This document shows, one piece after another, positions 2-36,134 of a stretch of 64,000 bases of DNA. How positions within the stretch are numbered: the first letter of the stretch is position 1; each line of letters opens with the position of its first letter. The DNA lies in the IMG/VR virus record IMGVR_UViG_3300046002_004363, positions 35,578-99,577 of that record; one strand, 5' to 3'. Made by a program: the position numbers and the translations under genes. Under the pieces are notes generated by a model. The model was not told the origin of the DNA and searched no databases. It saw nothing but the letters and a program-made list of their open reading frames with translations. Source of the DNA: a virus.

Positions 2-676
2 AGACATATACGAAAAGATACAAATCAAGTGTTTTATATTGGCATAGGAACAAGGTCAGGGCTTCATAGAGCAAAAAGCAAATCTTGTAGAAATAAAATA
101 TGGAATAGTATTGTGTCTAAAACAGAATATGAAGTAGAAATACTTTTTGAAGACGTTTCTTGGGATTTTGCTGTTGAAAAAGAAATTGAATTTATAAAAC
201 TATATGGCAAGATTATAGATAAAAACGGAACATTATCTAATTTAACTGATGGAGGAGAAGGATGCGCAGGTTTTAGTCATTCAGAAGAAACTAAAATAAG
301 ATTAAGTAAAAGTAAAAAAGGAGAAAAAAATCCAATGTATGGTACAGTATCGCCAAATAAAGGGAAAAAAACTTCAGAAGAAGTAAGAGAAAAAATAAGA
401 TTATCAAATACAGGTAAATTTAAAGGAGAAAAAAATCCTTACTATGGCAAAAAACACTCTGATGAGATTAGAAAAAAAATGTCAGATATACAGAAAACAA
501 TATCTAAAAAAGGAGAAGATAATCCTATGAGTAGAAAAATAATAAACTCAAACAATGGCAAGGTATATGACTGCATAAGAGAAGCCGCTGAAGATTTTGG
601 ATTTACATACTCAAAAGTAAAATGCCTATTAAATGGGAAAACAAAGGTAAACAACACAGGTCTTGAGTATCTATAA
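2..676 (+). CDS. GIY-YIG-type homing endonuclease with NUMOD3 repeats (5' truncated by window edge)
   Basis: Frame is open from base 2 (RHIRKDTNQVFYIGIG); NLTDGGEG motif; repeated HSEETK/GEKNPMYG NUMOD3 motifs; antisense to the capsid operon. Confidence 0.85.
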   Translation, partial: RHIRKDTNQVFYIGIGTRSGLHRAKSKSCRNKIWNSIVSKTEYEVEILFEDVSWDFAVEKEIEFIKLYGKIIDKNGTLSNLTDGGEGCAGFSHSEETKIRLSKSKKGEKNPMYGTVSPNKGKKTSEEVREKIRLSNTGKFKGEKNPYYGKKHSDEIRKKMSDIQKTISKKGEDNPMSRKIINSNNGKVYDCIREAAEDFGFTYSKVKCLLNGKTKVNNTGLEYL

Positions 677-710
677 AAAAAAGAGAGGCATTACACCTCT
701 CTTTTATTAT
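675..710. terminator. Bidirectional intrinsic terminator
   Basis: AAAAAAAAGAGAGG-cattaca-CCTCTCTTTT between convergent genes. Confidence 0.8.
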
Positions 711-738
711 TTATAACTTATTGATTTTCAAATAGTTA

Positions 739-2097
739 CTAACCTTTAACAAGTACGAAATTATTACGACCCATCGTACATAAGGCTCTTTCTGTCAACA
801 TGTGTAGTTGGTTAGCATCTAAGTCTGAATTACTTACATTTCCAGCTCCACCAACGCTCCACACTTTATAACGTCTGTCTTCAGTAGCAGACTTACGGTA
901 TTTAACGTGTAAGAATGGCAAAGTAGCATTAGCTCCTAAAACTTCATCTCTAACTGTTTTTGTTCCAGAAGGACATAGAACAGAGTTGATTGCAGAGTTA
1001 CCAGAGAACAAACCACGAGCAGTTGGATCATCTAAGTATTTCCATTGAGATTTGTAGATTTCGTAACCAGCAACTTTGAAACCTGAGAAACCTAAGTTTA
1101 AAGCTGTATCTTCGCTGTTATTGAAAGCTCCGTAAGAAGTACCTCCAACACCATAAGAATTTTGAGCAGCTAACAAGTAATCAATAGCTCTGTCTTGTTC
1201 GAAATCATTCATCATCATATATTCAGAAATAGCACCTTGTTTGTTTAAACGAGATAAGATTTCATCTACATCATCCATAGTAGAGATTACACCAGAGAAT
1301 ACGTTACCTTGAGCAACAGCTTCGAAGAAACCTTCAGTACCTGTGTACCCAGCAGTAGCAGCAGCAGAACCACTTTCGAAAGAAACACCCTCTACCATAC
1401 CCATCTCGATATAGTCATCAAATCTTTGACGAGATTGCGCTCTTGATTTTAAGTACCATAAGTACCCATTACCACCTTCACCTTCAACTTCAATCCAACC
1501 AACTTGAGCCATATCAGAACCATTAACTTCATCTAATTCCTTGATGATGATTGGTTTGTTATCAAAGATGTCTGGAGTAGCCTCTAAAGATTCAGCTCTA
1601 CCATTAGTTCCTTTTCTATACTCATTAGAGTAAGTGAATACGTTGATTCCTGAAGCAGCTAAAGCACCAGTATTACCAGCAGTACCGAAACCAGCAGATG
1701 TAGAAGCAGCAACTGTAAATGTATTTGCGTCTTCCGCTGTTACAATACCTTTCATTTCAACTGTACCATCATTTAAGATTACAGTATCATTTAAACGGAA
1801 AGAATGTCCATTCAAAGTAAATACAGCTCCTGAACGAGTTACACCTGTACCAACTGGTCTTAAACGACCTTCTTCAGACCATTTAATTAAGTCAGATTGG
1901 ATAGCCATCTCTTGACCCATTTTCTCTAAGAAACCTTTTAACGATTGGTTTCCGTAACGAGCGAATTCTTTTTCATACAATTCAGGTAAGAATTGATTTG
2001 TGAAGTCGAAATCAGAAGCATCTAAGTAGTTGCTATTTAAGATTTCTTTTGTTGCAGTAGGAGTTAATTTTACTCCTGGACTTGAATTTAATGCCAT
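739..2097 (-). CDS. Major capsid protein
   Basis: 452 aa, downstream of portal and acidic scaffold; QFLPELYEKEFARYG...WSEEGRL N-terminus typical of Bacteroidota podophage capsid proteins. Confidence 0.85.
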   Translation of the reverse strand: MALNSSPGVKLTPTATKEILNSNYLDASDFDFTNQFLPELYEKEFARYGNQSLKGFLEKMGQEMAIQSDLIKWSEEGRLRPVGTGVTRSGAVFTLNGHSFRLNDTVILNDGTVEMKGIVTAEDANTFTVAASTSAGFGTAGNTGALAASGINVFTYSNEYRKGTNGRAESLEATPDIFDNKPIIIKELDEVNGSDMAQVGWIEVEGEGGNGYLWYLKSRAQSRQRFDDYIEMGMVEGVSFESGSAAATAGYTGTEGFFEAVAQGNVFSGVISTMDDVDEILSRLNKQGAISEYMMMNDFEQDRAIDYLLAAQNSYGVGGTSYGAFNNSEDTALNLGFSGFKVAGYEIYKSQWKYLDDPTARGLFSGNSAINSVLCPSGTKTVRDEVLGANATLPFLHVKYRKSATEDRRYKVWSVGGAGNVSNSDLDANQLHMLTERALCTMGRNNFVLVKG

Positions 2098-2132
2098 TTG
2101 TGTGTGTTTTTGTTTTTTTTATTATTTCTTTT

Positions 2133-3152
2133 TTATACTAATTTAAACTTTGTGCCAGTAGATATGCTCTCTGGCGCTCTACGCATTCCCATATCTATGT
2201 TCTTACTATTTCTAACCTCATCCTCTATAGCCTTAGCCTTAGCTGTTTCATATACGTTTGATAAGATTGATTCGTAGTTCATAGCTACATACAATGCTTT
2301 GTGGTATCCTTCAGGGTCTTTGATAAAACCATTCTCATCTAAGAACTTTCCTAAAAAATTCATCACGTTTGATTGTGTCTCTTTCGTAGATTGAATATTT
2401 GAAGGTTTGTGATTAATAACTTCTTCACCAACTTTAAATTCAAAACCTTTGAATTCATTGCTAAATAAATTATCAGTCTCCTTCAAGAATATTTCATTCT
2501 GTTTTTGAGATAATTCCTCTTGCCCTTTAATAGAATCTACAAACTCCTTAGCACTTTTATATTCAGCTGGAATTTCTGTATCACTAGACCCTAATGGTAC
2601 AGCATATTTTTCCTTTTGTTTATTAAAGTATTCTAAGGCATCTGCGTGAGCCTTCTTAAATGCACGAGTCTTTTTTCTTATATCCTTGTCATCATCAAGG
2701 TCTTCATCATAAGCGTATGCATCTAAAAATTCATCTTGAATATCTTCATTGTCGAATTCAGGATTCATTTCTCGCATATACTTCTTAACAATATCTTGTT
2801 CGTCTAATTCAGAAAAGTCTTTTTGGTATTCTAAAAAATCATTATACCCCCTACCTGTTTCCTCTTTAAACTCTAAGTACTTCTTAACATCTTCTGGTAA
2901 TTCCTTGCTTTCGCTTTTAGGAGCTACCTTAGATAATAATTCTTCCTTAGTCTTAAGGTATTCTAATACGTCATCGTCATTATTAAATGTAAGAACTTGT
3001 TTGTCTTCTATAATCTCATCAGGTGTATCATTTGTTGTTGTAACCGAATCTGTAATTTGGTCGTTCACTTCAGACACTCCTTCATTGTCAATGATCACAT
3101 CATTATTTTGAACATCAGAGTACTCAGACCCTTCTAATTTCATTTTAAACAT
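2133..3152 (-). CDS. Capsid scaffolding protein (putative)
   Basis: Very acidic helical 339-aa protein between portal and capsid genes. Confidence 0.65.
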   Translation of the reverse strand: MFKMKLEGSEYSDVQNNDVIIDNEGVSEVNDQITDSVTTTNDTPDEIIEDKQVLTFNNDDDVLEYLKTKEELLSKVAPKSESKELPEDVKKYLEFKEETGRGYNDFLEYQKDFSELDEQDIVKKYMREMNPEFDNEDIQDEFLDAYAYDEDLDDDKDIRKKTRAFKKAHADALEYFNKQKEKYAVPLGSSDTEIPAEYKSAKEFVDSIKGQEELSQKQNEIFLKETDNLFSNEFKGFEFKVGEEVINHKPSNIQSTKETQSNVMNFLGKFLDENGFIKDPEGYHKALYVAMNYESILSNVYETAKAKAIEDEVRNSKNIDMGMRRAPESISTGTKFKLV

Positions 3153-3181
3153 ATAGTATTTGATTTAATTAAATTTCTCTG

Positions 3182-3189
3182 CAAAATTA
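3182..3189 (-). promoter_or_regulatory. Bacteroidota -7 promoter element (TAATTTTG) for scaffold/capsid
   Basis: Matches TAnnTTTG 30 nt upstream of the start codon. Confidence 0.65.
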
Positions 3190-3232
3190 CAAAATAATAG
3201 TTTTTATTTATCGTGGTTAAAATTCTGATAAT

Positions 3233-4135
3233 TTAAACATATATTAGACTTGTTTTATTTGGTCTATTTCCACTTAAGTAATTATTCAGTGTAGATATAT
3301 TTATATTTCTAGCCACAGCAGCTTCTCTTACGCAATAATAATATATTCCACTATCTAAATCTAAGACTAATTTTGATTTGTAATTATTTTCCCCAGATAT
3401 ACTTTTGCTTCTTTTTTCTAAGCACTCTTTTGATAACACCCTTCCTTTTAATGCGTTGGATATTTTCTCCCTTCTTTCTTTTGAAAATACAGTTCCTTTA
3501 TTGCTTTCTGATATTTTCTTTCTAGTTTCAATAGATACTTTTCTACCTACTAATCCTTTTGATATTTTTATTTTACTTTCTTCTGTATGCTTAAATCCTT
3601 TAAGTGAATTAGATATTTTCTCTTTAGATTCGTCTGAATGATTTTTGCCAAGCATATTTTTATTGCCTTTTTTTGATTCAGATATTTTATCTTTAGTTTC
3701 TTCAGTATGATTTTTACCATACATTGGATGTTTTTCCCCAGAAAATTTACCCTTCATTACAATAGACATATTCTCTATTTGCTCTGCGCTTCTTTTTTTA
3801 CCTTTATTAGAAAATCCTATTTTTGACTTTGTTTCTTCTGAATGCTTACCACTAAGAGAATCTGTTTCTGTAAGTTTACAATTCAATCCTTCATTTCCTG
3901 TGGAGTTATAATGATCTTGCCAAAACCTTTCCTTTTCGTTTAATTCGTTTATAAAGCACTCTTCAATAATATCAAAACTATGATTTTTAAATCCATAACT
4001 TAAGATAGAATTATACAATCTAACTTGATTTTTACAGTTGTTATTTCTGTATTTTCTTATTCTGCTGTTTATATTTGTACTTTGACCTATATATATTTTC
4101 CCAGACGGAGAAGTTATCTTGTATATTCCTATCAT
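3233..4135 (-). CDS. GIY-YIG homing endonuclease with multiple NUMOD3 repeats
   Basis: GIYKITSPSGKIYIGQS; several HSEETK-type repeats; own TATATTTG promoter at 4148-4155. Confidence 0.9.
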   Translation of the reverse strand: MIGIYKITSPSGKIYIGQSTNINSRIRKYRNNNCKNQVRLYNSILSYGFKNHSFDIIEECFINELNEKERFWQDHYNSTGNEGLNCKLTETDSLSGKHSEETKSKIGFSNKGKKRSAEQIENMSIVMKGKFSGEKHPMYGKNHTEETKDKISESKKGNKNMLGKNHSDESKEKISNSLKGFKHTEESKIKISKGLVGRKVSIETRKKISESNKGTVFSKERREKISNALKGRVLSKECLEKRSKSISGENNYKSKLVLDLDSGIYYYCVREAAVARNINISTLNNYLSGNRPNKTSLIYV

Positions 4136-22815: not shown

Positions 22816-22870
22816 AAGCGTATAAGGATGTGTTATCCTTACTGAAGAGAGGCAGAACCTCGAAACGCTT
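22816..22870 (+). ncRNA. Hammerhead ribozyme, type III
   Basis: AAGC-GUA; stem I UAAGGAU/AUCCUUA; core CUGAAGA; stem II GAGG/CCUC; GAAA; stem III CGCUU; predicted cut after A22822. Confidence 0.9.
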
Positions 22871-22886
22871 TTTAAAATTATACACT

Positions 22887-22997
22887 ATGAAGAATAAACT
22901 TAAGGTTATAGCGCTACTAATTGTGGCGCTATTTCTATTAGCAGTAGCAGAAAAACATTGTGAAACCAAAAATAAATACTATGAAGGGCAGAAGTAA
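22887..22997 (+). CDS. 36-aa single-TM peptide (not in ORF track)
   Basis: MKNKLKVIALLIVALFLLAVAEKHCETKNKYYEGQK; first ORF after the ribozyme. Confidence 0.5.
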   Translation: MKNKLKVIALLIVALFLLAVAEKHCETKNKYYEGQK

Positions 22998-23130
22998 TTC
23001 AAGTAGCAGAAGGTTAGCCTTAACCATCAGCACAAGCAGTACAATGAATGATTTTATTAACAAAAAATTAGGAGTAACTAAAGAAAACAAACGACCAATT
23101 TTAATCAAACCAACTAAAAAATAATATATT

Positions 23131-23319
23131 ATGGACAAATCTTATTCAATTTTTTGCATCGCAAGTCAGTTATTAAAAGATAACGAAAGAGAGTTAGATA
23201 TAGTTTGGCAAAATGCAACCGAACTATACAACGAATTTTTAAATAGTAGTTTCGATAATGTTAACGAATCGGAGTTGGACTGCATAAATGATTTTTTAAA
23301 TTATAAAAATCTAATATAA
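23131..23319 (+). CDS. Early hypothetical protein
   Basis: A-rich leader, coupled to next ORF. Confidence 0.55.
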   Translation: MDKSYSIFCIASQLLKDNERELDIVWQNATELYNEFLNSSFDNVNESELDCINDFLNYKNLI

Positions 23320-23660
23320 TGAAAACACTACAAATTAATTTGGGATTAAATAATAATCCAATGGATCGTGATCAGGTAGCTAACTACTTTTATGCACTAT
23401 CTGAGTATAGACTAATGGCTTATATCATCAAGGATAAGACCTTTAATGGTGAAGTAGAGCCTACTTTTGTAGCCTTATTAGAGCATAAGTACACACGTGA
23501 CAGCAAAATACTATCTGATGCTGAAAATTGGTGTAGCCTATTCACTCAGGAGTCAATTGCAGTAGTGACTGATAAAATGGAGGTGCTTGCATTCAATACG
23601 AAGTACGAAGGAGATACCTACAAATTTGATTCTAGTCTATTTGAATACATTAAAATATAA
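23319..23660 (+). CDS. Early hypothetical protein
   Basis: 113-aa ORF. Confidence 0.6.
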   Translation: MKTLQINLGLNNNPMDRDQVANYFYALSEYRLMAYIIKDKTFNGEVEPTFVALLEHKYTRDSKILSDAENWCSLFTQESIAVVTDKMEVLAFNTKYEGDTYKFDSSLFEYIKI

Positions 23661-23729
23661 CCTTATGAGAGCAATTATAAAATTTTTAGAAGAGTTAGCT
23701 AAGAATTGTCCGAGCGAGACAAAATGGTA

Positions 23730-23787
23730 GGCAAACTGATGAGGTTTTAATAACCGAAACTTGGATCTTCGGATCTGAGTCTTTGTC
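23730..23787 (+). ncRNA. Hammerhead ribozyme, type I
   Basis: Stem I GGCAAA/UUUGUC; core CUGAUGA; stem II GGUU/AACC; GAAA; stem III CUUGGAUC-UUCG-GAUCUGAG; GUC triplet, predicted cut after C23781. Confidence 0.92.
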
Positions 23788-24800: not shown

Positions 24801-25093
24801 TGAATATAAAAGACCAATTCAATAAAAGCAAAGGACTCCCTTTATATGAGATAGAAGTAACTAATCTAATTAGTAATAAAGATGACTTCATTATCTTCGA
24901 TATAACGGCATATAAAAATTATTTCAAGGTAACACATCAGCCACTTACTGAAGAGCAAGAAAATAGCTGTAAAATAGCCTCATTCTTTATGCCTATAGAT
25001 AATGAGGTTTCTTTAGAAGAACACCTTAATGAGTTATACCAAAAATGTTGTGAAGAAATAACAAGTAGTGATTATTATATTTTAAATGATTAA
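24800..25093 (+). CDS. Hypothetical protein
   Basis: Translationally coupled ORF. Confidence 0.55.
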   Translation: MNIKDQFNKSKGLPLYEIEVTNLISNKDDFIIFDITAYKNYFKVTHQPLTEEQENSCKIASFFMPIDNEVSLEEHLNELYQKCCEEITSSDYYILND

Positions 25094-25471
25094 AGATATG
25101 AGACCGAGAATTAATAGACGTGTGAATGTTCAGCAAGTGATTGAACACCTAGAGAACAAACGTAGAGTGTATTCAGAAGCTATTACAGACCTTATGAATG
25201 AAGAAGGTATATCTTATACCAAAGCAAAAGAATTGTTAAATAAAAGGCTATACGATAAGGTGGTCTTTAAATTTTAAGGTATGGTAATAGTAAACCAAAT
25301 TGATAATGAATTTTGGCAAATGAGATTGTTTGAACCGAGTAATAATATTTGGTTTGAACTTCTCTGCCTTGATTTAGAATCATTAACGCTACAAGCGAGT
25401 GTAATATATAACGTAGATTTAAACGAAGTCTTAAACTAATGAGAGTGAGAGACGCTAAATAATTCTAAGAT

Positions 25472-25678
25472 ATGACAGAAACTGCACAAATACACGGAAG
25501 TCAATTACATTTAGGAGAATTTATCTATGTAATAAATAGATACGGAAGATTCCTTAGGAAGATTACTTGGCTAAATACATACTACTTTGAATGGAATTCA
25601 GGTTATAGTAGTATAAACGAATTAGAATTAAATACAGATCAAAAAAGTAAAGTTAAATTTTTATTAAAAGAAGAATAA
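25472..25678 (+). CDS. Hypothetical protein
   Basis: TAAGATATG start context. Confidence 0.5.
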   Translation: MTETAQIHGSQLHLGEFIYVINRYGRFLRKITWLNTYYFEWNSGYSSINELELNTDQKSKVKFLLKEE

Positions 25679-25681
25679 ATT

Positions 25682-25822
25682 ATGGAAGAGTATAGTAATT
25701 GCTGTGGTGCAGGTAGACACCACATATATAACGAACTTTGTGCTGACTGTTTAGAGCATTGTGAGTTTGAAGAAGATGAAGACTTTGAATATGATGCGGA
25801 CATCGAGGATTTACAAAGTTAG
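25682..25822 (+). CDS. Small Cys-rich zinc-binding protein with acidic tail (46 aa, not in ORF track)
   Basis: MEEYSNCCGA...LCADCLEHCEFEEDEDFEYD. Confidence 0.6.
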   Translation: MEEYSNCCGAGRHHIYNELCADCLEHCEFEEDEDFEYDADIEDLQS

Positions 25823-26020
25823 ATGTACATTGAATGTACGAAACCAAATAATTAAGGGTATTATAACAAGAGGTAAGGCATACGATGTTATATGGAGTAA
25901 TGAGTACGGCTTTACCTTCCTTAATGATAAGGGTAAATTGTCTTTAGGTAGATTTAAAAATTGTCATATAATAAATGGCGATTGGGAAGTAATTTAAGAA
26001 ACAAAATATAAAAATATAAA

Positions 26021-26368
26021 ATGGAAGTAAAGAAATTCACATTATTTGAGGTGGCTAAGATATTAAGAAATCAACACCTAAACAAACTAAACTACAAAGA
26101 CTACAATAAATTTACTCAAGATGATTTTGAAGGTGTTGAGTATGTAAGGGTTAATAACAAGACAAGACCAAAAGATTTAGTAGGTAAGAGTGGTAGGGTA
26201 TCTAAGATGATCACCGCAATATCACCTAAGGGTAAGGAGATTGTATTCGATGGTGTTACAGATATTTGCGAGGCCTTAGATATTAAGGCTAAGAACTACT
26301 GGAGAAAGATGGCAGAGAATCAAGGGTACACTATTGTAAGTGTAGAAGAAGTAGCTAAATTAATTTAA
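26021..26368 (+). CDS. Hypothetical protein (possible NUMOD1/HTH C-terminus)
   Basis: A-rich leader; EIVFDGVTDICEALDI. Confidence 0.5.
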   Translation: MEVKKFTLFEVAKILRNQHLNKLNYKDYNKFTQDDFEGVEYVRVNNKTRPKDLVGKSGRVSKMITAISPKGKEIVFDGVTDICEALDIKAKNYWRKMAENQGYTIVSVEEVAKLI

Positions 26369-26558
26369 AGAAAAATAAGATGAAAAAAATACTTAAAAAA
26401 TTAGAGAAATTAAATAAAATAAGTGGTGATACCAATATGATACAGATATTCTCAGATGGCAGTGGCTTTGTATTGTATGAAACAGAAGATATTAGATTTG
26501 AATTTCTGAGTATTAAGCAATTAAAGAAATACCTTAAAACAATTTAAAAAGAAATAAG

Positions 26559-26771
26559 ATGGAAAATAAAGAAATACTTGAAGAAGTTGCTGAACAATTT
26601 GAATATACTAATGGTATATATGGATTTAAACAAGGTGCTAAATGGCAACAAGAACAAGACAAGAATAAGTATAGTGAAGAAGAAGTAATTCAACTACTAA
26701 TAAAATTCAATCAAGAAATTCAAGAAGTGGAAAATGTTAGAGGTTGGTTTGAAGAATTTAAAAAGAAATAA
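26559..26771 (+). CDS. Small mosaic hypothetical protein
   Basis: GAKWQQEQ..YSEEEV...WFEEFKKK modules shared with 39545..39832. Confidence 0.6.
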   Translation: MENKEILEEVAEQFEYTNGIYGFKQGAKWQQEQDKNKYSEEEVIQLLIKFNQEIQEVENVRGWFEEFKKK

Positions 26772-26774
26772 GAT

Positions 26775-26960
26775 ATGGAACACTTTAAATACAGATGGAA
26801 AATAGTTAATGTATACTACGAAACTATAGATGATGATCCAGAGTTAAGACCAGATATAGTACTTGATGCCGTTTATTATAATGGTATAGACATATTGCCA
26901 ATAATGAATGAAGTAGATTGTATTGAGTTAAAAGAAGAAATGTATAATCAATTATTTTAA
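26775..26960 (+). CDS. Hypothetical protein
   Basis: TAAGATATG start context. Confidence 0.5.
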   Translation: MEHFKYRWKIVNVYYETIDDDPELRPDIVLDAVYYNGIDILPIMNEVDCIELKEEMYNQLF

Positions 26961-26963
26961 AAT

Positions 26964-27131
26964 ATGAATAAGGTAGAAATTATTGCAGAATTAGATAAAC
27001 TAATGTATATTGCAGAACAATTAGAGAATACTTTTTTAGTTGGTAGACTTGAGGCAATAAAGCAATCACTTATAAAGGATTGGAATGAGAGTGATGCTTA
27101 CTATAAAATTATAAGTAATCAATTGAAATAA
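26964..27131 (+). CDS. Hypothetical protein (55 aa, not in ORF track)
   Basis: Its TAA stop is part of the TAAC box opening the cassette array. Confidence 0.5.
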   Translation: MNKVEIIAELDKLMYIAEQLENTFLVGRLEAIKQSLIKDWNESDAYYKIISNQLK

Positions 27132-27244
27132 CGGTTCTCGGCTTGGCGAAGTTGCAGAATGTTGAAATTAAACACTAAATATTACAGATTATGACTAAAC
27201 ATTCAGAAAATACCAAAAGTAGCAATAGCACAAAACCTGTGTTA
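27129..27244. repeat. attC-like site 1 (chimeric)
   Basis: TAAC 27129, GTTA 27241; right half 69/77 identical to site 4. Confidence 0.7.
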
Positions 27245-27463
27245 CAATCAGTTTTTTTTGACTTTGATTATTGGAATAAATGCAATGCTTTATGGAATGT
27301 TTCTCCGCATCATTCTTTTGAAAATTTAGTAGTCATTGAATATGTTGGAACAAGTAAAATGAGAATTTCTATTTGTGTTGAAAAAAATGAATTTGAATTA
27401 GGTTTAAATAGATTTTGGAGTGAGTTCAAACGTCAAAGTGAAAATAATGCGTTACGTAATTAA
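27191..27463 (+). CDS. Cassette 1 hypothetical protein
   Basis: Starts within site 1, stops at the next box. Confidence 0.65.
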   Translation: MTKHSENTKSSNSTKPVLQSVFFDFDYWNKCNALWNVSPHHSFENLVVIEYVGTSKMRISICVEKNEFELGLNRFWSEFKRQSENNALRN

Positions 27464-27472
27464 AATTGATTG

Positions 27473-27598
27473 TAACGTATGTGGCTTTAAGCAGTTGCCA
27501 ATAAAACTGCCTTAACTTTTGATTTAAAACTAATGATTACAGATACAAAACAACCTTTAAATTTAGCCGAAAGTGGCAATTGCTTAAAGCCGCTGTTA
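27473..27598. repeat. attC-like site 2
   Basis: Arms GTGGCTTTAAGCAGTTGCCA (27481-27500) / TGGCAATTGCTTAAAGCCGC (27574-27593): 18 Watson-Crick pairs plus 2 G-T. Confidence 0.85.
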
Positions 27599-27985
27599 CA
27601 AGCAGTGTTTTTAGTTCCTTATGTTCCGTATTATTTACGAATATTTGAACCAATTTACAACGAAAAATATACACTTGTTGGAATTATTGAAAATGAACTT
27701 TATTGCAAAGAAACTGAAATAGATGATTGTTTCTCTTTTGAAATAGACGAAAATACATTTCCAATATTAAGACCGTTGTCTGATTTTTACGATATAAATG
27801 CACCCGCATTTATTGATACAAATTTTGATATTCCAACACAATTAGTTTTGGTTGATTTATGCTCTAAAAAACAACATTATTCAAGCGTAAGATATTCAGA
27901 TATGCAAGAGTTTTTACGTGAACATATTGACATTTTCAATCTTATTGAACAAGATTTAGCCGTTTCAATCCACGATGTTGTGTAA
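27533..27985 (+). CDS. Cassette 2 hypothetical protein
   Basis: PYVPY...PILRPLSD...HIDIFNLIEQDLAV; starts within site 2. Confidence 0.7.
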   Translation: MITDTKQPLNLAESGNCLKPLLQAVFLVPYVPYYLRIFEPIYNEKYTLVGIIENELYCKETEIDDCFSFEIDENTFPILRPLSDFYDINAPAFIDTNFDIPTQLVLVDLCSKKQHYSSVRYSDMQEFLREHIDIFNLIEQDLAVSIHDVV

Positions 27986-27994
27986 CATTGCTTA

Positions 27995-28104
27995 TAACGT
28001 TCCCACGCTTGGCATCAGTTGCCTAACGGAATAATCAAATGAATTAATAAAAAACAATAATGTCAAACGAAACACTAATAGGCGATTGTGCCAAACGTGT
28101 GTTA
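27995..28104. repeat. attC-like site 3
   Basis: Arms CACGCTTGGCA(T)CAGTTGCCTA / TAGGCGATTGTGCCAAACGTG with one bulged T. Confidence 0.85.
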
Positions 28105-28118
28105 AAAAACGTATTAAA

Positions 28119-28346
28119 ATGAAACAACAAACAGCAGTAGAATGGTTAGAAGAACAATTATTTGGTTCATTAGGAATTGAATTAACAGAACATCAATCAA
28201 AAATGGCTAATGAAATATTCTTTAAACAAGCCAAAGAAATGTTTGAAAGTCAAATTATTAATGCACATACATCAGGGCAATTAGAAAATGATTTACTACC
28301 AAACGAAAAAGCACAACAATATTATAAGCAAACTTTTAAAAAATAA
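28119..28346 (+). CDS. TAVEWL-family small protein (start revised)
   Basis: MKQQTAVEWL; paralogues at 38866 and 39131. Confidence 0.65.
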   Translation: MKQQTAVEWLEEQLFGSLGIELTEHQSKMANEIFFKQAKEMFESQIINAHTSGQLENDLLPNEKAQQYYKQTFKK

Positions 28347-28351
28347 AAATT

Positions 28352-28630
28352 ATGATTTTTAAATTAATTTTTGAGGACAAACAAGAATATGCACAAGCTA
28401 AATCACAACTTCATTTATTACAAAAATGGAATAAAGAATATGATGATTTTGAAGATATTTTAGAGGTAATTGAAATATCAGAAGAAGAAGCAAAAATAAT
28501 TATGCTTTCAAACAATGAGTATGACCCTGAATTGCCAATTGACGATGAATTTAATTACCCTGAATTTTCATTATATGATACCGTTGTAGGCGATGATTTC
28601 GTAGTAGTTGGTTCAACGGAATGGGATTAA
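28352..28630 (+). CDS. Cassette 3 acidic hypothetical protein
   Basis: Stop codon overlaps the closing inverted repeat. Confidence 0.6.
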   Translation: MIFKLIFEDKQEYAQAKSQLHLLQKWNKEYDDFEDILEVIEISEEEAKIIMLSNNEYDPELPIDDEFNYPEFSLYDTVVGDDFVVVGSTEWD

Positions 28631-28639
28631 TATGTTTTT

Positions 28640-28769
28640 TAACGTTATCAGGCTTTGTGTCTGTTGCGACCAAAAATAAAACAAATTTTAATTTAAACAC
28701 TAAAAATTACAGATTATGATTAAACATTCAGAAAACACCGAGCCAAGCAATAGCACAAAACCTGTGTTA
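28640..28769. repeat. attC-like site 4
   Basis: Arms CAGGCTTTGTG(T)CTGTTGC / GCAATAGCACAAAACCTG with one bulged T. Confidence 0.85.
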
Positions 28770-29144
28770 GCAAATCGTATTTTTAAACTTCGTGCTTGGG
28801 TTAGAAATGAATTAATGGTTAATGTCGTAAGTATAGATTTCAATAATGAATTTATAACTTGGGACGACAATCAATACGATAGATGTGTTCCTCCAAATAA
28901 ATGCTATGAAATTGAAACTTTTGATGATATTGTTTTAATGCAATTTACAAATTTTAAAGATAAAAAAGGAATTGACATTTATGAAGGAGATAAAATAAAA
29001 TACAAAAATTTCAAAGGTTATTCAACAATTGTTTTTGAAAACGGTGCTTTTGGTTATTACGGAATTTCTTGTTTTATTACTCTTTTAGAAACAAATGCAG
29101 AACATATAGAAGTTATTGGAAACGTCTTTCAGTATTCTGAATAA
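28716..29144 (+). CDS. YopX-family protein (cassette 4)
   Basis: FKLRAW...LMQFT..KDKKGIDIYEGD...EVIGNV. Confidence 0.85.
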   Translation: MIKHSENTEPSNSTKPVLANRIFKLRAWVRNELMVNVVSIDFNNEFITWDDNQYDRCVPPNKCYEIETFDDIVLMQFTNFKDKKGIDIYEGDKIKYKNFKGYSTIVFENGAFGYYGISCFITLLETNAEHIEVIGNVFQYSE

Positions 29145-29210
29145 TATGTTTGCTAACTACAACATTACATCATAAAAAATATTATTTTCTATTATTAACA
29201 CTTATAAACA

Positions 29211-29411
29211 ATGGAAATTTATACAGAAGTACATAGCTTTACTTTAACGAAAGAACAAAAGAAAATCTTAACCGATTTAAAGGCAAACAAAGTGAATGTT
29301 TCAAAGTTAATAAGAGAAATACTATTTAAGGAATTAACGTCAAAAGTTGACAAAAGAAAGAAACCAACAATTGACGATTTAAAAAATAGTTTAGATAACG
29401 TGTTTATTTAA
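29211..29411 (+). CDS. Ribbon-helix-helix-like small regulator
   Basis: SFTLT...NVSKLIREIL. Confidence 0.5.
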   Translation: MEIYTEVHSFTLTKEQKKILTDLKANKVNVSKLIREILFKELTSKVDKRKKPTIDDLKNSLDNVFI

Positions 29412-29485
29412 ATATAAATACTATATTTGCATACGGAGAAGCCGAACACCGAACATAGTAGGCAATACATTTTAAATTATATTAT

Positions 29486-29797
29486 ATGGCTCAATTGATT
29501 GCAGTTAGCGTTGACCTAACAAAAATTGACAAAACAAGAATCGTTGAAGGTAGAAATGGAGGTAAATACATAAACCTTACCATCTCTGTAAACGATGAGG
29601 AGGACCAATACGGAAACAATGTTTCTTTATGGCAGTCACAAACTAAGGAAGAGCGTGAGGCTAAGGAGAATAGATTGTTCTTAGGTAATGGGAAGTCATT
29701 ATGGAGTGATAGTGATAAAGGCACAAAAGCATCTAAGACTTCTAAGAAAGAAGAGGCTATTGCAAATGACGAACAACACAATGACCTGCCATTCTAA
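29486..29797 (+). CDS. Single-stranded DNA-binding protein (putative)
   Basis: Beta-rich core, acidic tail ending DLPF; promoter at 29422-29429. Confidence 0.65.
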   Translation: MAQLIAVSVDLTKIDKTRIVEGRNGGKYINLTISVNDEEDQYGNNVSLWQSQTKEEREAKENRLFLGNGKSLWSDSDKGTKASKTSKKEEAIANDEQHNDLPF

Positions 29798-29868
29798 AAA
29801 GGTAGTAAAATAAATTTGTAATTACCATTTTAATTCTCTATATTTGTATATCTTAAAAATATATAAGT

Positions 29869-30375
29869 ATGGAGAATTTAATTTTAAAAAAGGTTTGTTT
29901 TAAGTGTAATGAAGAAAAAGAAATCACAGAATATTACAAACATAAAGAAATGTCTGACGGTCATTTAAACAAGTGTAAAAATTGTACTAAAAAAGATTCT
30001 AAAATAACTTTAGAATTAAAAACATCTACTACAGAAGGTTTAGAAAAAGAACGTGCAAGGCATAGAGAAAAGTATAAGCGTTTAGGATATAAAGATAAGC
30101 AAAAAAAATGGGATGAAAAAAGACCACATACTAAAAGTAGTAAGTATAAAAACTTAAGTAGAAATAATAAAATACCTAAAGGTTTTGAAATACACCATTG
30201 GAATTATTTAGACATTTTTTTAGAAGACTTTTTTATACTACCAATAAAAGAACAACGAAAAGCACATACTTTTTTAAATAAACTAAATAATATTTTTGAA
30301 GGTTTAAATGGTGAAATATTAGACACAAGGGAAAAGCATTTTAATTATTTAGTTAGTAAAGGAATAGTGTTTTAG
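29869..30375 (+). CDS. Zn-finger HNH-like endonuclease
   Basis: CFKC...CKNC, EIHHWNY; own promoter at 29839-29846. Confidence 0.65.
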   Translation: MENLILKKVCFKCNEEKEITEYYKHKEMSDGHLNKCKNCTKKDSKITLELKTSTTEGLEKERARHREKYKRLGYKDKQKKWDEKRPHTKSSKYKNLSRNNKIPKGFEIHHWNYLDIFLEDFFILPIKEQRKAHTFLNKLNNIFEGLNGEILDTREKHFNYLVSKGIVF

Positions 30376-30458
30376 CAATCAAGCACTTAGATTATTAATT
30401 AAAACATTTGATTTAGAGGTTTTCATTGAGAAATACTACTAAATAACACAACTAACCT

Positions 30459-30491
30459 AAAGAGAGGTATCGTATGGTACTTCTCTTTTTT
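30459..30491 (+). terminator. Intrinsic terminator
   Basis: AAAGAGAGGTA-tcgtatgg-TACTTCTCTTTTTT. Confidence 0.65.
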
Positions 30492-30511
30492 AATACAAAA
30501 CAAATTAAATT

Positions 30512-31126
30512 ATGGCAACAAAAAACACAGAAAAGAAAATGAATTTATTTCAAAAATTATTAGAGATTCAAAAAGTAGTAGTTGGTCTTGGTAAGGATTC
30601 AAAATCATTCGGATACCAATATGTATCAGGTTCAAAGGTATTAGAACACATTAAGCCTATGATGAATGACTTAGGTATTATCTTAAAGCAAGAGATAATT
30701 GACATTGAGAATACAAGACAAGATTACGCAACAAAGAATGGATCTAAGACAGAGATACTAACTAAGGCGATTATGAGATTCACTTGGGTAGATTGTGAGA
30801 CTGGAGATAAAGATGAAAATTTATTTGCTGCTAATGGATTCAATGATTTTGATAAAGGCGTTGGATCTGCATTAACTTATGCCGAGAGATACTTCTTACT
30901 TAAGTACTTTCACATTGCTACTGATGAGGATGACATCGATAATCCTAATCGTAAGCCTACTGAGGTTACAAAACCTAATAACTCCACAACACCAACCCCT
31001 AAGAAACCAACAATAAGCGACTTATCAAAGGTTAAAGATGCACTAAAGAAAGATATGGAGACAACATTAAAGATGCTTGAGAAGTACGATATAACACCAG
31101 AACAGAAAAGAGAGTTGGGAATTTAA
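30512..31126 (+). CDS. ERF-family ssDNA annealing protein
   Basis: GSALTYAERYFLLKYFHIATDEDD. Confidence 0.9.
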   Translation: MATKNTEKKMNLFQKLLEIQKVVVGLGKDSKSFGYQYVSGSKVLEHIKPMMNDLGIILKQEIIDIENTRQDYATKNGSKTEILTKAIMRFTWVDCETGDKDENLFAANGFNDFDKGVGSALTYAERYFLLKYFHIATDEDDIDNPNRKPTEVTKPNNSTTPTPKKPTISDLSKVKDALKKDMETTLKMLEKYDITPEQKRELGI

Positions 31127-31152
31127 TTCCTGACTCTTAAATAAAGTAAGAT

Positions 31153-31866
31153 ATGAATAAAATAATTTTAATAGACGCTGACAGTTTTGCATACATAGGT
31201 AATAACTGCGAAGAAGTAGACCAAGCATACGATAAAGTAGACCAAGCAATATCAAATATCATAGCGACATCTGGAGCAAGTCATTACAAGGTTTTCATTG
31301 AAGCAATTGGAAACCAAACATTTAGACGTATTGCATTTAATTCTTATAAGTCAGGAAGAAAAAATAAAGAACTGCCAAAGTATTATAAAGACATAAAGCA
31401 ATACATAATTGAAACTTATAACCCATTCATTAGTTGTGGTGTTGAGAGTGATGATTCTATAATTTCAACACACAAGCATTTAAAAGAAGAATATCCGTTC
31501 ACAGAAATAATAATTGCAGCAATGGATAAAGACTATCTAACACACGAAATATCAAGGTTTGATACTTATTACAGCAGATTCGGAGAAATAAAAACAGTTA
31601 GCAAAAAAGAAGCTGAATTTAATTTTTATAAACAAATGATAGAAGGTGACTCTAGCGACTCCGTTTCTGGCGTTAAAGGTTCTGGTAAGGTAATGGCAGA
31701 GAAAGTCCTTAAAAATAGCTATAATTACTTTATATCGACCTGTAGGCATTATAAGTTAAAGCATAAGAATAAATGGAGGGATAGTTTTAAGAAAAATTAC
31801 TTCCTATTAAGGATAAGAGATGATGTTAGGTTTTGTAAAGAACTTGATTTAGTTGAGTTTGAATAA
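31153..31866 (+). CDS. 5'-3' exonuclease (T7 gp6/PolI N-terminal-like)
   Basis: LIDADS, FR..YK.GR, ESDD, DKD and GDSSDSVSGVKG motifs. Confidence 0.85.
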   Translation: MNKIILIDADSFAYIGNNCEEVDQAYDKVDQAISNIIATSGASHYKVFIEAIGNQTFRRIAFNSYKSGRKNKELPKYYKDIKQYIIETYNPFISCGVESDDSIISTHKHLKEEYPFTEIIIAAMDKDYLTHEISRFDTYYSRFGEIKTVSKKEAEFNFYKQMIEGDSSDSVSGVKGSGKVMAEKVLKNSYNYFISTCRHYKLKHKNKWRDSFKKNYFLLRIRDDVRFCKELDLVEFE

Positions 31867-35192: not shown

Positions 35193-36134
35193 ATGAATCA
35201 TAGTTTTAACGTAGATATAGCAAAAAAATATGGTGTAGAATTGGCTATAATTTTAGAAAATATGCAGTGGTGGATTGCTAAAAATAAAGCTAATAAAAAG
35301 CATTTTCATCAAGGAAGTTACTGGACATATAATTCTGTAAAAGCATTTTCTGAACTATTTCCTTATTGGTCTGTACATCAAATAGGCAGGTTTTTAAGAA
35401 GACTAGAAGACGAAGGTTTGATAGTGTCTAAAAACTTTAATAAGGCTGGATATGACAAGACAAAGTGGTATACAGTCAATGATAGCTTGATTTTGCAAAA
35501 TTGCAACATCGAATGTGCAGAAATGCACAATCCATTGTGTGAAAATGCACAACCTATACCAGATATAAACACAGATATAAATAATTCTCTTGTAGGGTCT
35601 TCTCAGACACCTACGAAAAAAGATTCTAAGAAAGATTTATTTAAAACCAAATTGTCAGAAATTGATGTTACTACACTTGATAAGCAAGAACAAGTATATT
35701 TTAAAATAGCTATTGGTTTTAGAGATTTGTTTATAAAGAACAAAAAGGCTTTAGGTGTTAATGATTTTAGAGACCAAGAAAACGCTACTTACAAAAATTA
35801 TGTTGACCCAATAAGATTATCTTTTACGCAAGATAAAAAAACAGAGGAAGATTTTAGAAAGGTGTATGCTTTTTTAATGAATGATGAATTCTGGATGAAG
35901 AATATAATGTCTACATCTAAGTTAAGAGAAAAAATGTCTGATTTACTGATAAGATCATCTTCTGTTCCGACTAAGAAACAAGTACTACCATCAGACTTTT
36001 GGGTAAGGGAATTAAGTGATGAGCAAAAGAAATTACTAAGCGATAAAGACTTAGCTACTTGGGAAAGACAGAAGACAGCAAGGCTTATGGAGGGTGGTAG
36101 AATGTTACCTATAAAAATAGAATATGAAAAATAA
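35193..36134 (+). CDS. Replication initiator (winged-helix, lambda O/DnaD-like; start revised)
   Basis: WTYNS...LFPYWS...L..EGLI...YDKTKWY; internal direct repeats; FWMKNIMS.SKLR; directly upstream of primase-helicase. Confidence 0.75.
   Translation: MNHSFNVDIAKKYGVELAIILENMQWWIAKNKANKKHFHQGSYWTYNSVKAFSELFPYWSVHQIGRFLRRLEDEGLIVSKNFNKAGYDKTKWYTVNDSLILQNCNIECAEMHNPLCENAQPIPDINTDINNSLVGSSQTPTKKDSKKDLFKTKLSEIDVTTLDKQEQVYFKIAIGFRDLFIKNKKALGVNDFRDQENATYKNYVDPIRLSFTQDKKTEEDFRKVYAFLMNDEFWMKNIMSTSKLREKMSDLLIRSSSVPTKKQVLPSDFWVRELSDEQKKLLSDKDLATWERQKTARLMEGGRMLPIKIEYEK

Follow-up and report, generated by a model that had tools for sequence, protein, structure and literature searches.

Integrons are the textbook bacterial device for gene capture. 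In T4-type phages, small early genes of the hyperplastic region form another kind of cassette, bounded by repeated stem-loops and shuffled as modules; these elements, PeSLs, combine a promoter with a stem-loop, and their recombination is believed to rely on homology. Integrons are regarded as near-absent from Bacteroidota and dependent on a special domain of IntI. Surveys with IntegronFinder revealed almost no integrons in Bacteroidetes (PMC9024848), and the I2 helix in the IntI-specific segment is held to have enabled single-strand recombination (PMC7790495). Clusters of attC-type sites without an integrase (CALINs), some of them with methyltransferase cassettes, are reported from virulent phages by Qi et al. 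2023 (PMC9892861). Moreover, the rAID-1 clusters of gut Bacteroidales comprise a XerD-family recombinase followed by long gene arrays, with intergenic repeats "reminiscent of integrons" (Ross et al. 2019, bioRxiv 10.1101/471110).

Here, we analyze a viral DNA stretch of 64,000 nt (positions 35,578 to 99,577 of the IMG/VR record IMGVR_UViG_3300046002_004363), below referred to as the window. Its region 27129–29157 probably consists of four integron-like cassettes without a recombinase of their own, forming a part of a Bacteroidota/Flavobacterium cassette system. Flavobacterium bacteria and phages thus seem to have in common a hitherto undescribed integron-like system of gene exchange: no published description of it has been found in the literature, and the Baltic phage paper (PMC7077304) mentions neither repeats, nor hairpins, nor an integrase. 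The reading of the locus as integron cassettes had been proposed in a preliminary description based on the nucleotide sequence alone, and each of its predictions examined here is supported by the results given below.

Structure of the Sites

Four sites with the TAAC, stem-loop, GTTA layout had been claimed, and all their coordinates have been verified (Table 1), including the terminal TTTGCTAAC ending at 29157. A covariance model (CM) was built from the window sites and used to search phages, IMG/VR and Flavobacterium genomes; no further site is present in the 64-kb window.

Table 1. Features of the cassette array (window coordinates; CM, covariance model score).
Feature	Position	Strand	Remarks
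Site 1 (chimeric, attC-like)	27129..27244	+	TAAC at 27129, GTTA at 27241; 5' arm of one site type, loop and 3' arm of the site-4 type
Site 2 (attC-like)	27473..27598	+	TAAC at 27473, GTTA at 27595; CM 105.9 bits
Site 3 (attC-like)	27995..28104	+	TAAC at 27995, GTTA at 28101; CM 85 bits
Site 4 (attC-like)	28640..28769	+	TAAC at 28640, GTTA at 28766; CM 135.8 bits
Terminal half-site (...TTTGCTAAC)	29143..29157	+	closes cassette 4, end of array; next bases TAC, not GTT
Cassette 1 R-helix arms	27241-27255 with 27462-27476	+	left arm is GTTA plus 11 nt
Cassette 2 R-helix arms	27595-27609 with 27984-27998	+	
Cassette 3 R-helix arms	28101-28116 with 28628-28643	+	
Cassette 4 R-helix arms	28766-28774 with 29149-29157	+	
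Cassette 1 ORF, 90 aa	27191..27463	+	ATG within the loop of site 1; no family match
Cassette 2 ORF, 150 aa	27533..27985	+	ATG within the loop of site 2; matches phrog_10841, function unknown
Cassette 3 body, two ORFs	28119..28630	+	28119-28346 (75 aa) and 28352-28630 (92 aa); no significant family match
Cassette 4 ORF, 142 aa	28716..29144	+	YopX family from residue 25
Unit 4, discrete mobile block	28640..29157	+	100% identical copy on a sediment-metagenome contig from another study

In the predicted fold of sites 2–4, a 5-bp closing helix (TAACG/TGTTA) is followed by a bulge of 3–4 nt in the 5' arm and then by about 18 bp of stem capped by an AT-rich loop. The long stem is absent from the predicted fold of site 1, whose 3' half has 88% identity to site 4 and whose 5' arm is unmatched; the segment 27129–27159 alone is present on metagenome contigs, with breaks at 27128 and 27159. 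As the junction of this chimera is inside the loop, ordinary recombination within sites also occurs. A phage-like contig within a Flavobacterium assembly has a site with 95% identity to site 2, and site 4 has 91% identity to sites of Lillamyvirus and Muminvirus and 89% to a Flavobacterium chromosomal site.

The phage sites are imperfect palindromes with R''(..AAC) and R'(GTT..) cores, L boxes and a variable loop, as expected of attC; their length ranges from 63 to 194 nt, the loops are 75% A+T, and TAAC and GTTA are conserved in 97–100% of the sites. In the alignment of 106 distinct phage sites, 96.9% of the stem cells are paired, compared to 70.8% in shuffles, with compensatory changes observed at 16 pairs, and in bacterial host sites the pairing equals 96.7%. 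Conservation extends to three G·T pairs, located on the identical DNA strand in phages and bacteria. A search of Rfam gave no relevant match at E ≤ 1 in the region 25000–31000 and, over the entire window, none reaching the gathering score. The Bacteroidetes –7 motif TAnnTTTG was found on the gene strand of only one out of the 106 phage sites, and promoter cassettes of the PeSL type were rejected based on this count.

Pairing of Cassette Ends

The arms of the R helix are contributed by the two ends of each cassette and not by the flanks of a single site, as had been suggested. For 79 unique phage cassettes, own ends form on average 8.87 out of 10 pairs beyond GTTA/TAAC, compared to 4.89 for the flanks of single sites and 5.07 for shuffled partners; in bacterial cassettes the respective value is 9.33 out of 10, with controls at about five. 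The inverted repeats initially noted in the flanks are therefore real, with pairing that greatly exceeds chance, whereas their extent has been redefined: the helix comprises GTTA and 11 more nucleotides, 15 bp in total, with a near-invariant G·T pair at position +7 (86–87% of cassettes, phage and bacterial alike).

Cassette Genes and the Strand of the Fold

The folding strand carries the longest ORF in 76 of the 79 phage cassettes; in the bacterial ones, the longest ORF is mostly on the complementary strand (93 of 113). As phage genes run opposite to the genes of host cassettes, phage cassettes have inverted polarity, with the site upstream of the gene and often giving the start codon. The AT-rich loop of phage sites often provides both the start codon and the first 15–20 codons; site 4 encodes the first 18 residues of the cassette 4 ORF, and the loop of site 3 contains a leader ORF of 20 codons (28060–28122), whose TGA overlaps the ATG at 28119. 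In general, an ATG inside the site with the frame reading through GTTA is present in 35 of the 84 phage units and in none of the 18 short sites (<100 nt). A fixed frame at G|TTA holds for the four window sites but not generally, since phase 0 is found in 13 phage units and phase 1 in 20. RNase III processing stems flanking each ORF were also considered and discarded, as the cleavage would part loop-encoded start codons from their ORFs.

These features raise the question of a role in RNA only, the sites being structured leaders that expose the start codon within an open, AT-rich loop and insulate translation starts, with modular exchange as a by-product. The phylum of these hosts does without Shine–Dalgarno pairing, every phage site is co-oriented with the genes, and the loop composition and in-site start codons agree with such a role, as do the G·T pairs, which become G·U in mRNA. 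However, the strand of the G·T pairs is unchanged in Flavobacterium chromosomes despite the opposite orientation of most cassette ORFs, so that mRNA there would carry C/A mismatches; conservation of these pairs on the same strand, with genes opposed, points to folded DNA rather than mRNA. Nor does a purely RNA function agree with the lack of in-site starts in short sites, the variable phase at GTTA and the absence of an Rfam family match, and it does not predict breakpoints at TAAC (see below). Hence, we consider it extremely improbable as the sole explanation, while an additional RNA role in phages may exist alongside integron-like recombination.

Other Phages and Unit-Level Polymorphism

Unrelated Flavobacterium siphoviruses carry 10–14 sites each, all on one strand, as identified by the covariance model, and arrays of matching sites are present on many IMG/VR viral contigs. 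Altogether, the arrays are known from at least three unrelated phage groups, with most ORFs of the array regions having no known function.

The integron reading implied that relatives should differ at TAAC, and whole-unit gain, loss, replacement, and reordering have been observed exactly there. Sibling siphoviruses that are 99–100% identical differ by whole units, and the eight bounded indels among them intersect only in T+0 to T+3, that is, in TAAC; hence the absence of breakpoints at the TAAC/GTTA boxes, named in advance as an outcome contradicting this reading, has not been observed. In most bounded indels the shared sequence comprises only 6–7 nt (TAACGTT). The metagenome copy of unit 4 has unrelated flanks, with identity breaking exactly at 28640 and 29157 and another site coming next. 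Together with the eight indels, the ends of this unit place the cassette boundary at the AAC/GTT core, with the resolution of TAAC rather than of one phosphodiester bond. In the phage elemoA, which has zero sites, the sequence diverges from the window from 27132 on.

Near-identical sites occur on unrelated gene bodies, which fits the homogeneous sites of sedentary integrons; exchange at GTTA could be an alternative. A few "skip" joints with short sides were seen among assembled contigs, where self-returning junctions could not appear. A lake-water run contains 92% of the stretch.

In relatives of this phage, the genes of an ERF protein and a 5'–3' exonuclease are located just 3' of the array (homologues at approximately 30512–31866 of the window), and the units might be shuffled by general or microhomology recombination, either by these ERF-type annealing and exonuclease functions or by replication slippage at hairpins, the sites then being conserved sequence modules with no dedicated recombinase on the phage. 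Slippage between direct repeats is known to be promoted by a hairpin located between them, and the shuffling of PeSLs in T4-type phages follows the same logic. The chimeric site 1 with its loop-internal junction and the lack of a recombinase in the four phage records checked are also compatible with this mechanism. Still, a shared sequence of 6–7 nt is too short, and the meeting of the eight intervals in TAAC too precise, for exchange by annealing, which, moreover, leaves unexplained the co-varying cassette ends, the three conserved G·T pairs, and the same sites in recombinase-linked host arrays. We regard this mechanism as unlikely and prefer site-specific, integron-like recombination.

Host Arrays and the Candidate Recombinase

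The new model built from the window sites, as had been recommended, matches 111 of the 151 Flavobacterium genomes in addition to the viral contigs. Same-strand host arrays occupy more than 55 kb of genome G149, while those of G036 and G028 measure about 30 kb and about 20 kb, respectively. An exact-pattern scan of bacterial genomes turned out to be too loose, with 48 loci found and only two upheld by the model.

The G036 array is headed by a 345-aa protein with the Phage_integrase and Phage_int_SAM_4 domains. Its orthologue is found at the matching array end in G028, in equal relative orientation, and orthologues in G001, G098, G052, G030, G066, and G060 have an opposite-strand site at a distance of no more than about 3 kb. 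Thus, the architecture with an Xer-family recombinase heading an array of single genes with repeats is observed in G036, G028, and also G001, and the proposed association of the sites with a tyrosine recombinase family in hosts is supported. Sites and recombinase co-occur with the odds ratio of 7.5 (p = 7e-7, genomes taken as independent, with no phylogenetic correction); 35 of the 111 site-bearing genomes have no orthologue at the cut-off of E ≤ 1e-60. Elements of the IS200/IS605 or REP type with HUH transposases were considered because of the subterminal hairpin and tetranucleotide boundary, and set aside since it is a tyrosine recombinase that heads the host arrays.

The array-head recombinase aligns to residues 9–185 and 247–317 of VchIntIA, with just 18 residues corresponding to the stretch of 61 residues that includes the IntI-specific domain, and scores 202.5 bits on TIGR02249, under the cut-off of 265. 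IntI with the additional domain (I2 helix), which defines integrons sensu stricto, is found neither in the phage record nor in the host recombinase. The suggestion of a distinct recombinase family is borne out in that the protein is Xer-like and lacks this domain. The published view on the I2 helix (PMC7790495) counts against the host recombinase as the acting enzyme, the IntI segment being absent.

The window had been noted to contain no integrase, and the search for PF00589 extends this to the whole 99.6-kb record, as well as to the phages morran, mumin9-1, and PQ867841, none of which has a match. At the same time, a 132-kb array-bearing phage encodes a short tyrosine recombinase of its own. 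Given this protein, the spread of arrays over at least three unrelated phage groups, and the many ORFs of these regions without known function, site-specific recombination might be performed by an unrecognized phage-encoded enzyme and not by a host recombinase. We find this quite improbable, as PF00589 is absent from the four array-bearing phages, while the host genus offers a candidate enzyme heading homologous arrays. We retain the host recombinase as the preferred candidate.

Proposed Model

The model starts from the observed anatomy of the sites, the homology they share with those of hosts, the association of the recombinase with arrays, and the unit-precise polymorphism, while the cleavage position, the circles, and the acting enzyme are the elements that we infer. 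The site would fold as single-stranded DNA, with the folding strand being the plus strand of the phage and corresponding to the "bottom" strand of integrons. The putative fold begins with an R helix (TAAC/GTTA and 11 cassette-specific base pairs with the conserved G·T), followed by an asymmetric spacer, by an L stem measuring about 18 bp, and by a variable loop. The breakpoints are consistent with a crossover in the 5' TAAC, at TAA|C, and the mobile unit would then extend from C of one TAAC through TAA of the next one, comprising the site and the downstream gene. During infection, a recombinase provided by the host or by a co-infecting element would cut at TAA|C, and the units may leave as circles and enter other sites; the predicted circle junction for unit 4 of the window is ...TTTGCTAA|CGTTATCAGG... 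In this way accessory early genes might be shuffled among phages, and possibly between phages and hosts.

A broader hypothesis, the chances of which we see as evenly balanced, is that of a second integron lineage without IntI, defined by an Xer-like recombinase and attC-like sites with a long R helix and common in Flavobacterium. It would share one cassette pool with virulent phages, in which cassettes have the inverted polarity and the site also serves as a portable module for starting translation, and the phages would borrow the host enzyme to trade anti-defense and other early genes.

Sites following the integron logic are present in three quarters of the sampled Flavobacterium genomes, with a recombinase lacking the IntI domain alongside; the same sites are found inside virulent phages, and whole units come and go among near-identical isolates. 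If the model is correct, single-strand cassette recombination has evolved, or persists, without the I2 helix; a host-type cassette system diversifies early-gene regions of phages, including methyltransferases and other likely anti-defense genes; and phages are direct vehicles of cassette traffic. The analysis also provides a concrete, testable pair of substrate and enzyme.

Comparison With Known Systems

Both PeSL cassettes and the cassettes studied here carry small early genes bounded by repeated stem-loops and moved as modules, but the latter differ in the covariation of their ends and in having sites homologous to those of recombinase-linked host arrays. The rAID-1 clusters come from the same phylum and have the same recombinase-headed array layout, the likeness being one of architecture; they differ in carrying immunity genes in chromosomes and mobile elements of Bacteroidales, not in Flavobacterium or phages. 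The site structure and the crossover point, left unanalyzed in the rAID-1 paper (bioRxiv 10.1101/471110), are analyzed here.

With four sites in 2 kb and no PF00589 in 99.6 kb, the locus has the composition of a CALIN (two or more close attC sites, no integrase nearby), provided that non-canonical sites count as attC. The attC1 oligonucleotide of Polaribacter phage P12002L, given in the PMC9892861 supplement, has the same layout, TAACG...stem...TGTTA. The main text and one supplement of Qi et al. 2023 (PMC9892861) name no Flavobacterium phage, and present no host recombinase, unit-level polymorphism, inverted polarity, or loop start codon, all four of which are described here.

The closest parallel is with integrons, in particular sedentary chromosomal ones such as the Vibrio superintegron with its IntI, attI, and attC arrays. 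Both systems have same-strand arrays of one-gene cassettes, and sites composed of AAC...GTT cores, R helix, spacer, L helix, and variable loop (63–194 nt per site here), with the R helix completed only by the two ends of the cassette itself; the breakpoints observed here agree with AA|C on the folding strand, the host arrays are headed by a tyrosine recombinase, and the sites are homogeneous within a genus. On the other hand, the recombinase of the new system lacks the IntI-specific segment, has an N-terminal extension of about 70 aa, and is encoded in the same direction as the cassette genes; the R helix of the sites spans 15 bp and has a conserved G·T pair, compared to 7 bp in integrons; the spacer is 4–5 nt on one arm and 1 nt on the other; and in phages the gene polarity is inverted, so that the loop of the site can encode the start of the gene.

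Sites in the window and the site family

The positions proposed in the preliminary description for the four attC-like sites (TAAC, stem-loop, GTTA) are confirmed (see table), and window-wide site scans yield no further site in the 64-kb window. In sites 2–4, a TAACG/TGTTA helix closes a fold composed of a 5' bulge of 3–4 nt, an approximately 18-bp stem and an AT-rich loop. Site 1, which does not form the long stem, is a chimera: loop and 3' arm share 88% identity with site 4, whereas the 5' arm belongs to a different type. Three ORFs start within site loops. In site 3 there is a leader of 20 codons, and its stop codon overlaps with the ATG that follows. Stops of cassette ORFs fall at set positions relative to the next TAAC: in 12 phage units the stop is the TAA of TAAC itself, and in 11 it lies inside the right arm of the R helix (GTTA plus 11 nt paired across the cassette), 9 nt 5' of TAAC. 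A whole-window search with Rfam gave no match at gathering score, including at 22816–23787, where two hammerhead ribozymes had been proposed; a weak match to DUF805b RNA (RF02914; 21.8 bits vs gathering score 35.6, E = 0.01) is observed downstream of the array, directly 3' of a TATATTTG promoter-like box.

Coordinates of the arrays and associated features
Feature	Sequence	Position	Remark
Site 1	window	27129–27244 (+)	
Part of site 1	window	27129–27159	found alone on metagenome contigs
Site 2	window	27473–27598 (+)	
Site 3	window	27995–28104 (+)	
Site 4	window	28640–28769 (+)	
ORF starts in loops	window	27191, 27533, 28716	
Cassette-ORF stops	window	27131, 27461–27463, 27983–27985, 28628–28630, 29142–29144	
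Unit 4	window	28640–29157	
RF02914 match	window	29432–29464 (+)	below gathering score
Second-array sites	record	95–220, 524–653, 2857–2981	
Arrays by prfA	Flavobacterium loci	L113:9432–11833, L131:2925–10381	
Short tyrosine recombinase	132-kb viral contig (L123)	G153:C1:101521–101997	open frame 280 aa

The covariance model R1 was built from a 13-site alignment, in which compensatory changes occur at 13 of the 22 pairs. The scan of phages and hosts with a new model, suggested earlier, recovered arrays in both: R1 matches 14 sites in Lillamyvirus morran, 11 in Muminvirus mumin9-1 and two in a Zobellviridae oyster phage, as well as arrays on IMG/VR contigs of numerous samples, and has hits in 111 of 151 sampled Flavobacterium genomes. 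All sites of any one phage are on a single strand. In 106 distinct phage sites paired cells constitute 96.9%, compared to 70.8% in shuffles, and two G·U pairs are invariant. For 79 unique phage cassettes, pairing of a cassette's own ends beyond GTTA/TAAC averages 8.87 of 10 pairs; the flanks of any one site reach 4.89 and shuffled partners 5.07, in agreement with the earlier claim that the ends of a cassette, and not the flanks of a single site, pair. This helix extends 11 nt past the core, and position +7 is a G·T in 86% of these cassettes.

Unit-precise variation

The window belongs to an Elemovirus-like Flavobacterium phage. Two related elemo-like genomes seem to be joined in the 99.6-kb IMG/VR record: 1–34.9 kb parallels 62.7–99.5 kb with 86–96% identity. 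The part of the window concerned is 27129–64000. Outside the window (record 1–35577), the first copy bears a second, different array at 95–3343, which terminates in ...GCTACTAAC followed by TAC at record position 3343. Phage elemoA is approximately 90% identical to the window on both sides of the array and lacks 27132–29378, having one unrelated ORF at that place; homology ends with the TAA in the first TAAC, and the R1 search finds zero sites in the elemoA genome.

Sibling siphoviruses, 99–100% identical, differ in whole units, by presence or absence, replacement or relocation. A 506-bp unit (a site and a 142-aa ORF) of mumin9-1, for instance, is missing from mumin6-3, and TAACGTT is the sole sequence common to both junctions. 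Eight bounded indels, distributed over seven positions in the arrays, give the following intervals, counted from the T of TAAC: T+0..+6 (three cases), T–3..+11, T+0..+15, T–1..+4, T+0..+5 and T–8..+3. The gain, loss and movement of units at TAAC expected earlier are thus observed, and as all eight intervals intersect in TAAC, the mobile unit is a site with its downstream gene. A sediment-metagenome contig of another study supports mobility independently: it carries unit 4 with zero differences between flanks unrelated on both sides, the next site start (GTTAAAGC...) following directly. The unit 4 cassette body (YopX family) is also 100% identical in a wastewater metagenome, at high depth. DNA methyltransferases are encoded by several siphovirus cassettes (arrays L004, L006 and L008, GenBank annotation), consistent with anti-restriction cargo.

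Arrays and recombinase in Flavobacterium

Same-strand arrays reach >55 kb, ~30 kb and ~20 kb in genomes G149, G036 and G028, respectively. Host sites share the phage fold, with 96.7% pairing and both of the invariant G·U pairs seen in phage sites, and bacterial cassettes have own-end pairing of 9.33/10, with the +7 G·T in 87%. One Flavobacterium assembly has a site 95% identical to window site 2, on a phage-like contig, and another, a site 89% identical to site 4, in chromosomal context near prfA. In two genomes the array adjoins prfA (release factor 1) or is a few kb off, a hint that the chromosomal location is conserved. The Bacteroidetes –7 motif TAnnTTTG occurs on the cassette-gene strand at 64 of 126 host sites (loci L113–L122) and on the other strand at one. 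Of 106 phage sites, 24 have it on the strand equivalent to that of the host cassette genes and one has it on the other, which is the phage gene strand. In hosts, each site may provide the promoter of the following cassette.

A 345-aa tyrosine recombinase heads the G036 array, and its G028 orthologue is at the matching array end in the same orientation; in several other genomes an orthologue and an opposite-strand site are at most ~3 kb apart. Orthologues are present in 85 of the 151 genomes, and their presence is associated with that of sites (odds ratio 7.5, p = 7e-7, without phylogenetic correction). The best solved-structure match is archaeal XerA. The enzyme aligns to residues 9–185 and 247–317 of VchIntIA, and lacks the IntI-specific segment, as 18 residues stand where IntI has 61, which bears out the suggestion of a distinct recombinase family. 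The absence of an integrase, noted for the window, extends to the whole record: no tyrosine recombinase was found there, nor in morran, mumin9-1 or the oyster phage. One 132-kb array-bearing phage, with several sites, encodes a short tyrosine recombinase and may carry the complete system.

Folded DNA versus RNA

Phages and bacteria have the conserved G·T pairs on one and the same strand, but gene polarity is inverted in phages: this strand carries the longest ORF in 76 of 79 phage cassettes, whereas in 93 of 113 bacterial cassettes the longest ORF is on the other one. Selection for a fold in mRNA would not retain C/A mismatches in host transcripts, which points to the folded DNA strand, similar to the integron bottom strand, as the common denominator of the two sets. 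A secondary role of sites in phage translation is plausible: a loop ATG reads through GTTA in 35 of 84 phage units. However, this holds for none of the 18 short sites among them, and the reading phase at GTTA varies.

Comparison with known systems

Literature searches yielded no account of the Flavobacterium system, nor of its phage arrays. Integrons are almost absent from Bacteroidetes in IntegronFinder surveys (PMC9024848). CALINs are known in phages, including a Polaribacter phage, whose attC1 shows the layout of the window sites; Flavobacterium phages are absent from the main text and one supplement of that survey (PMC9892861). In Bacteroidales rAID-1 clusters, integron-like repeats accompany a XerD-family recombinase (10.1101/471110). 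The logic of the system is that of integrons, but the IntI-specific enzyme feature is absent and, as this feature is the defining one, the system is not classed as an integron proper.
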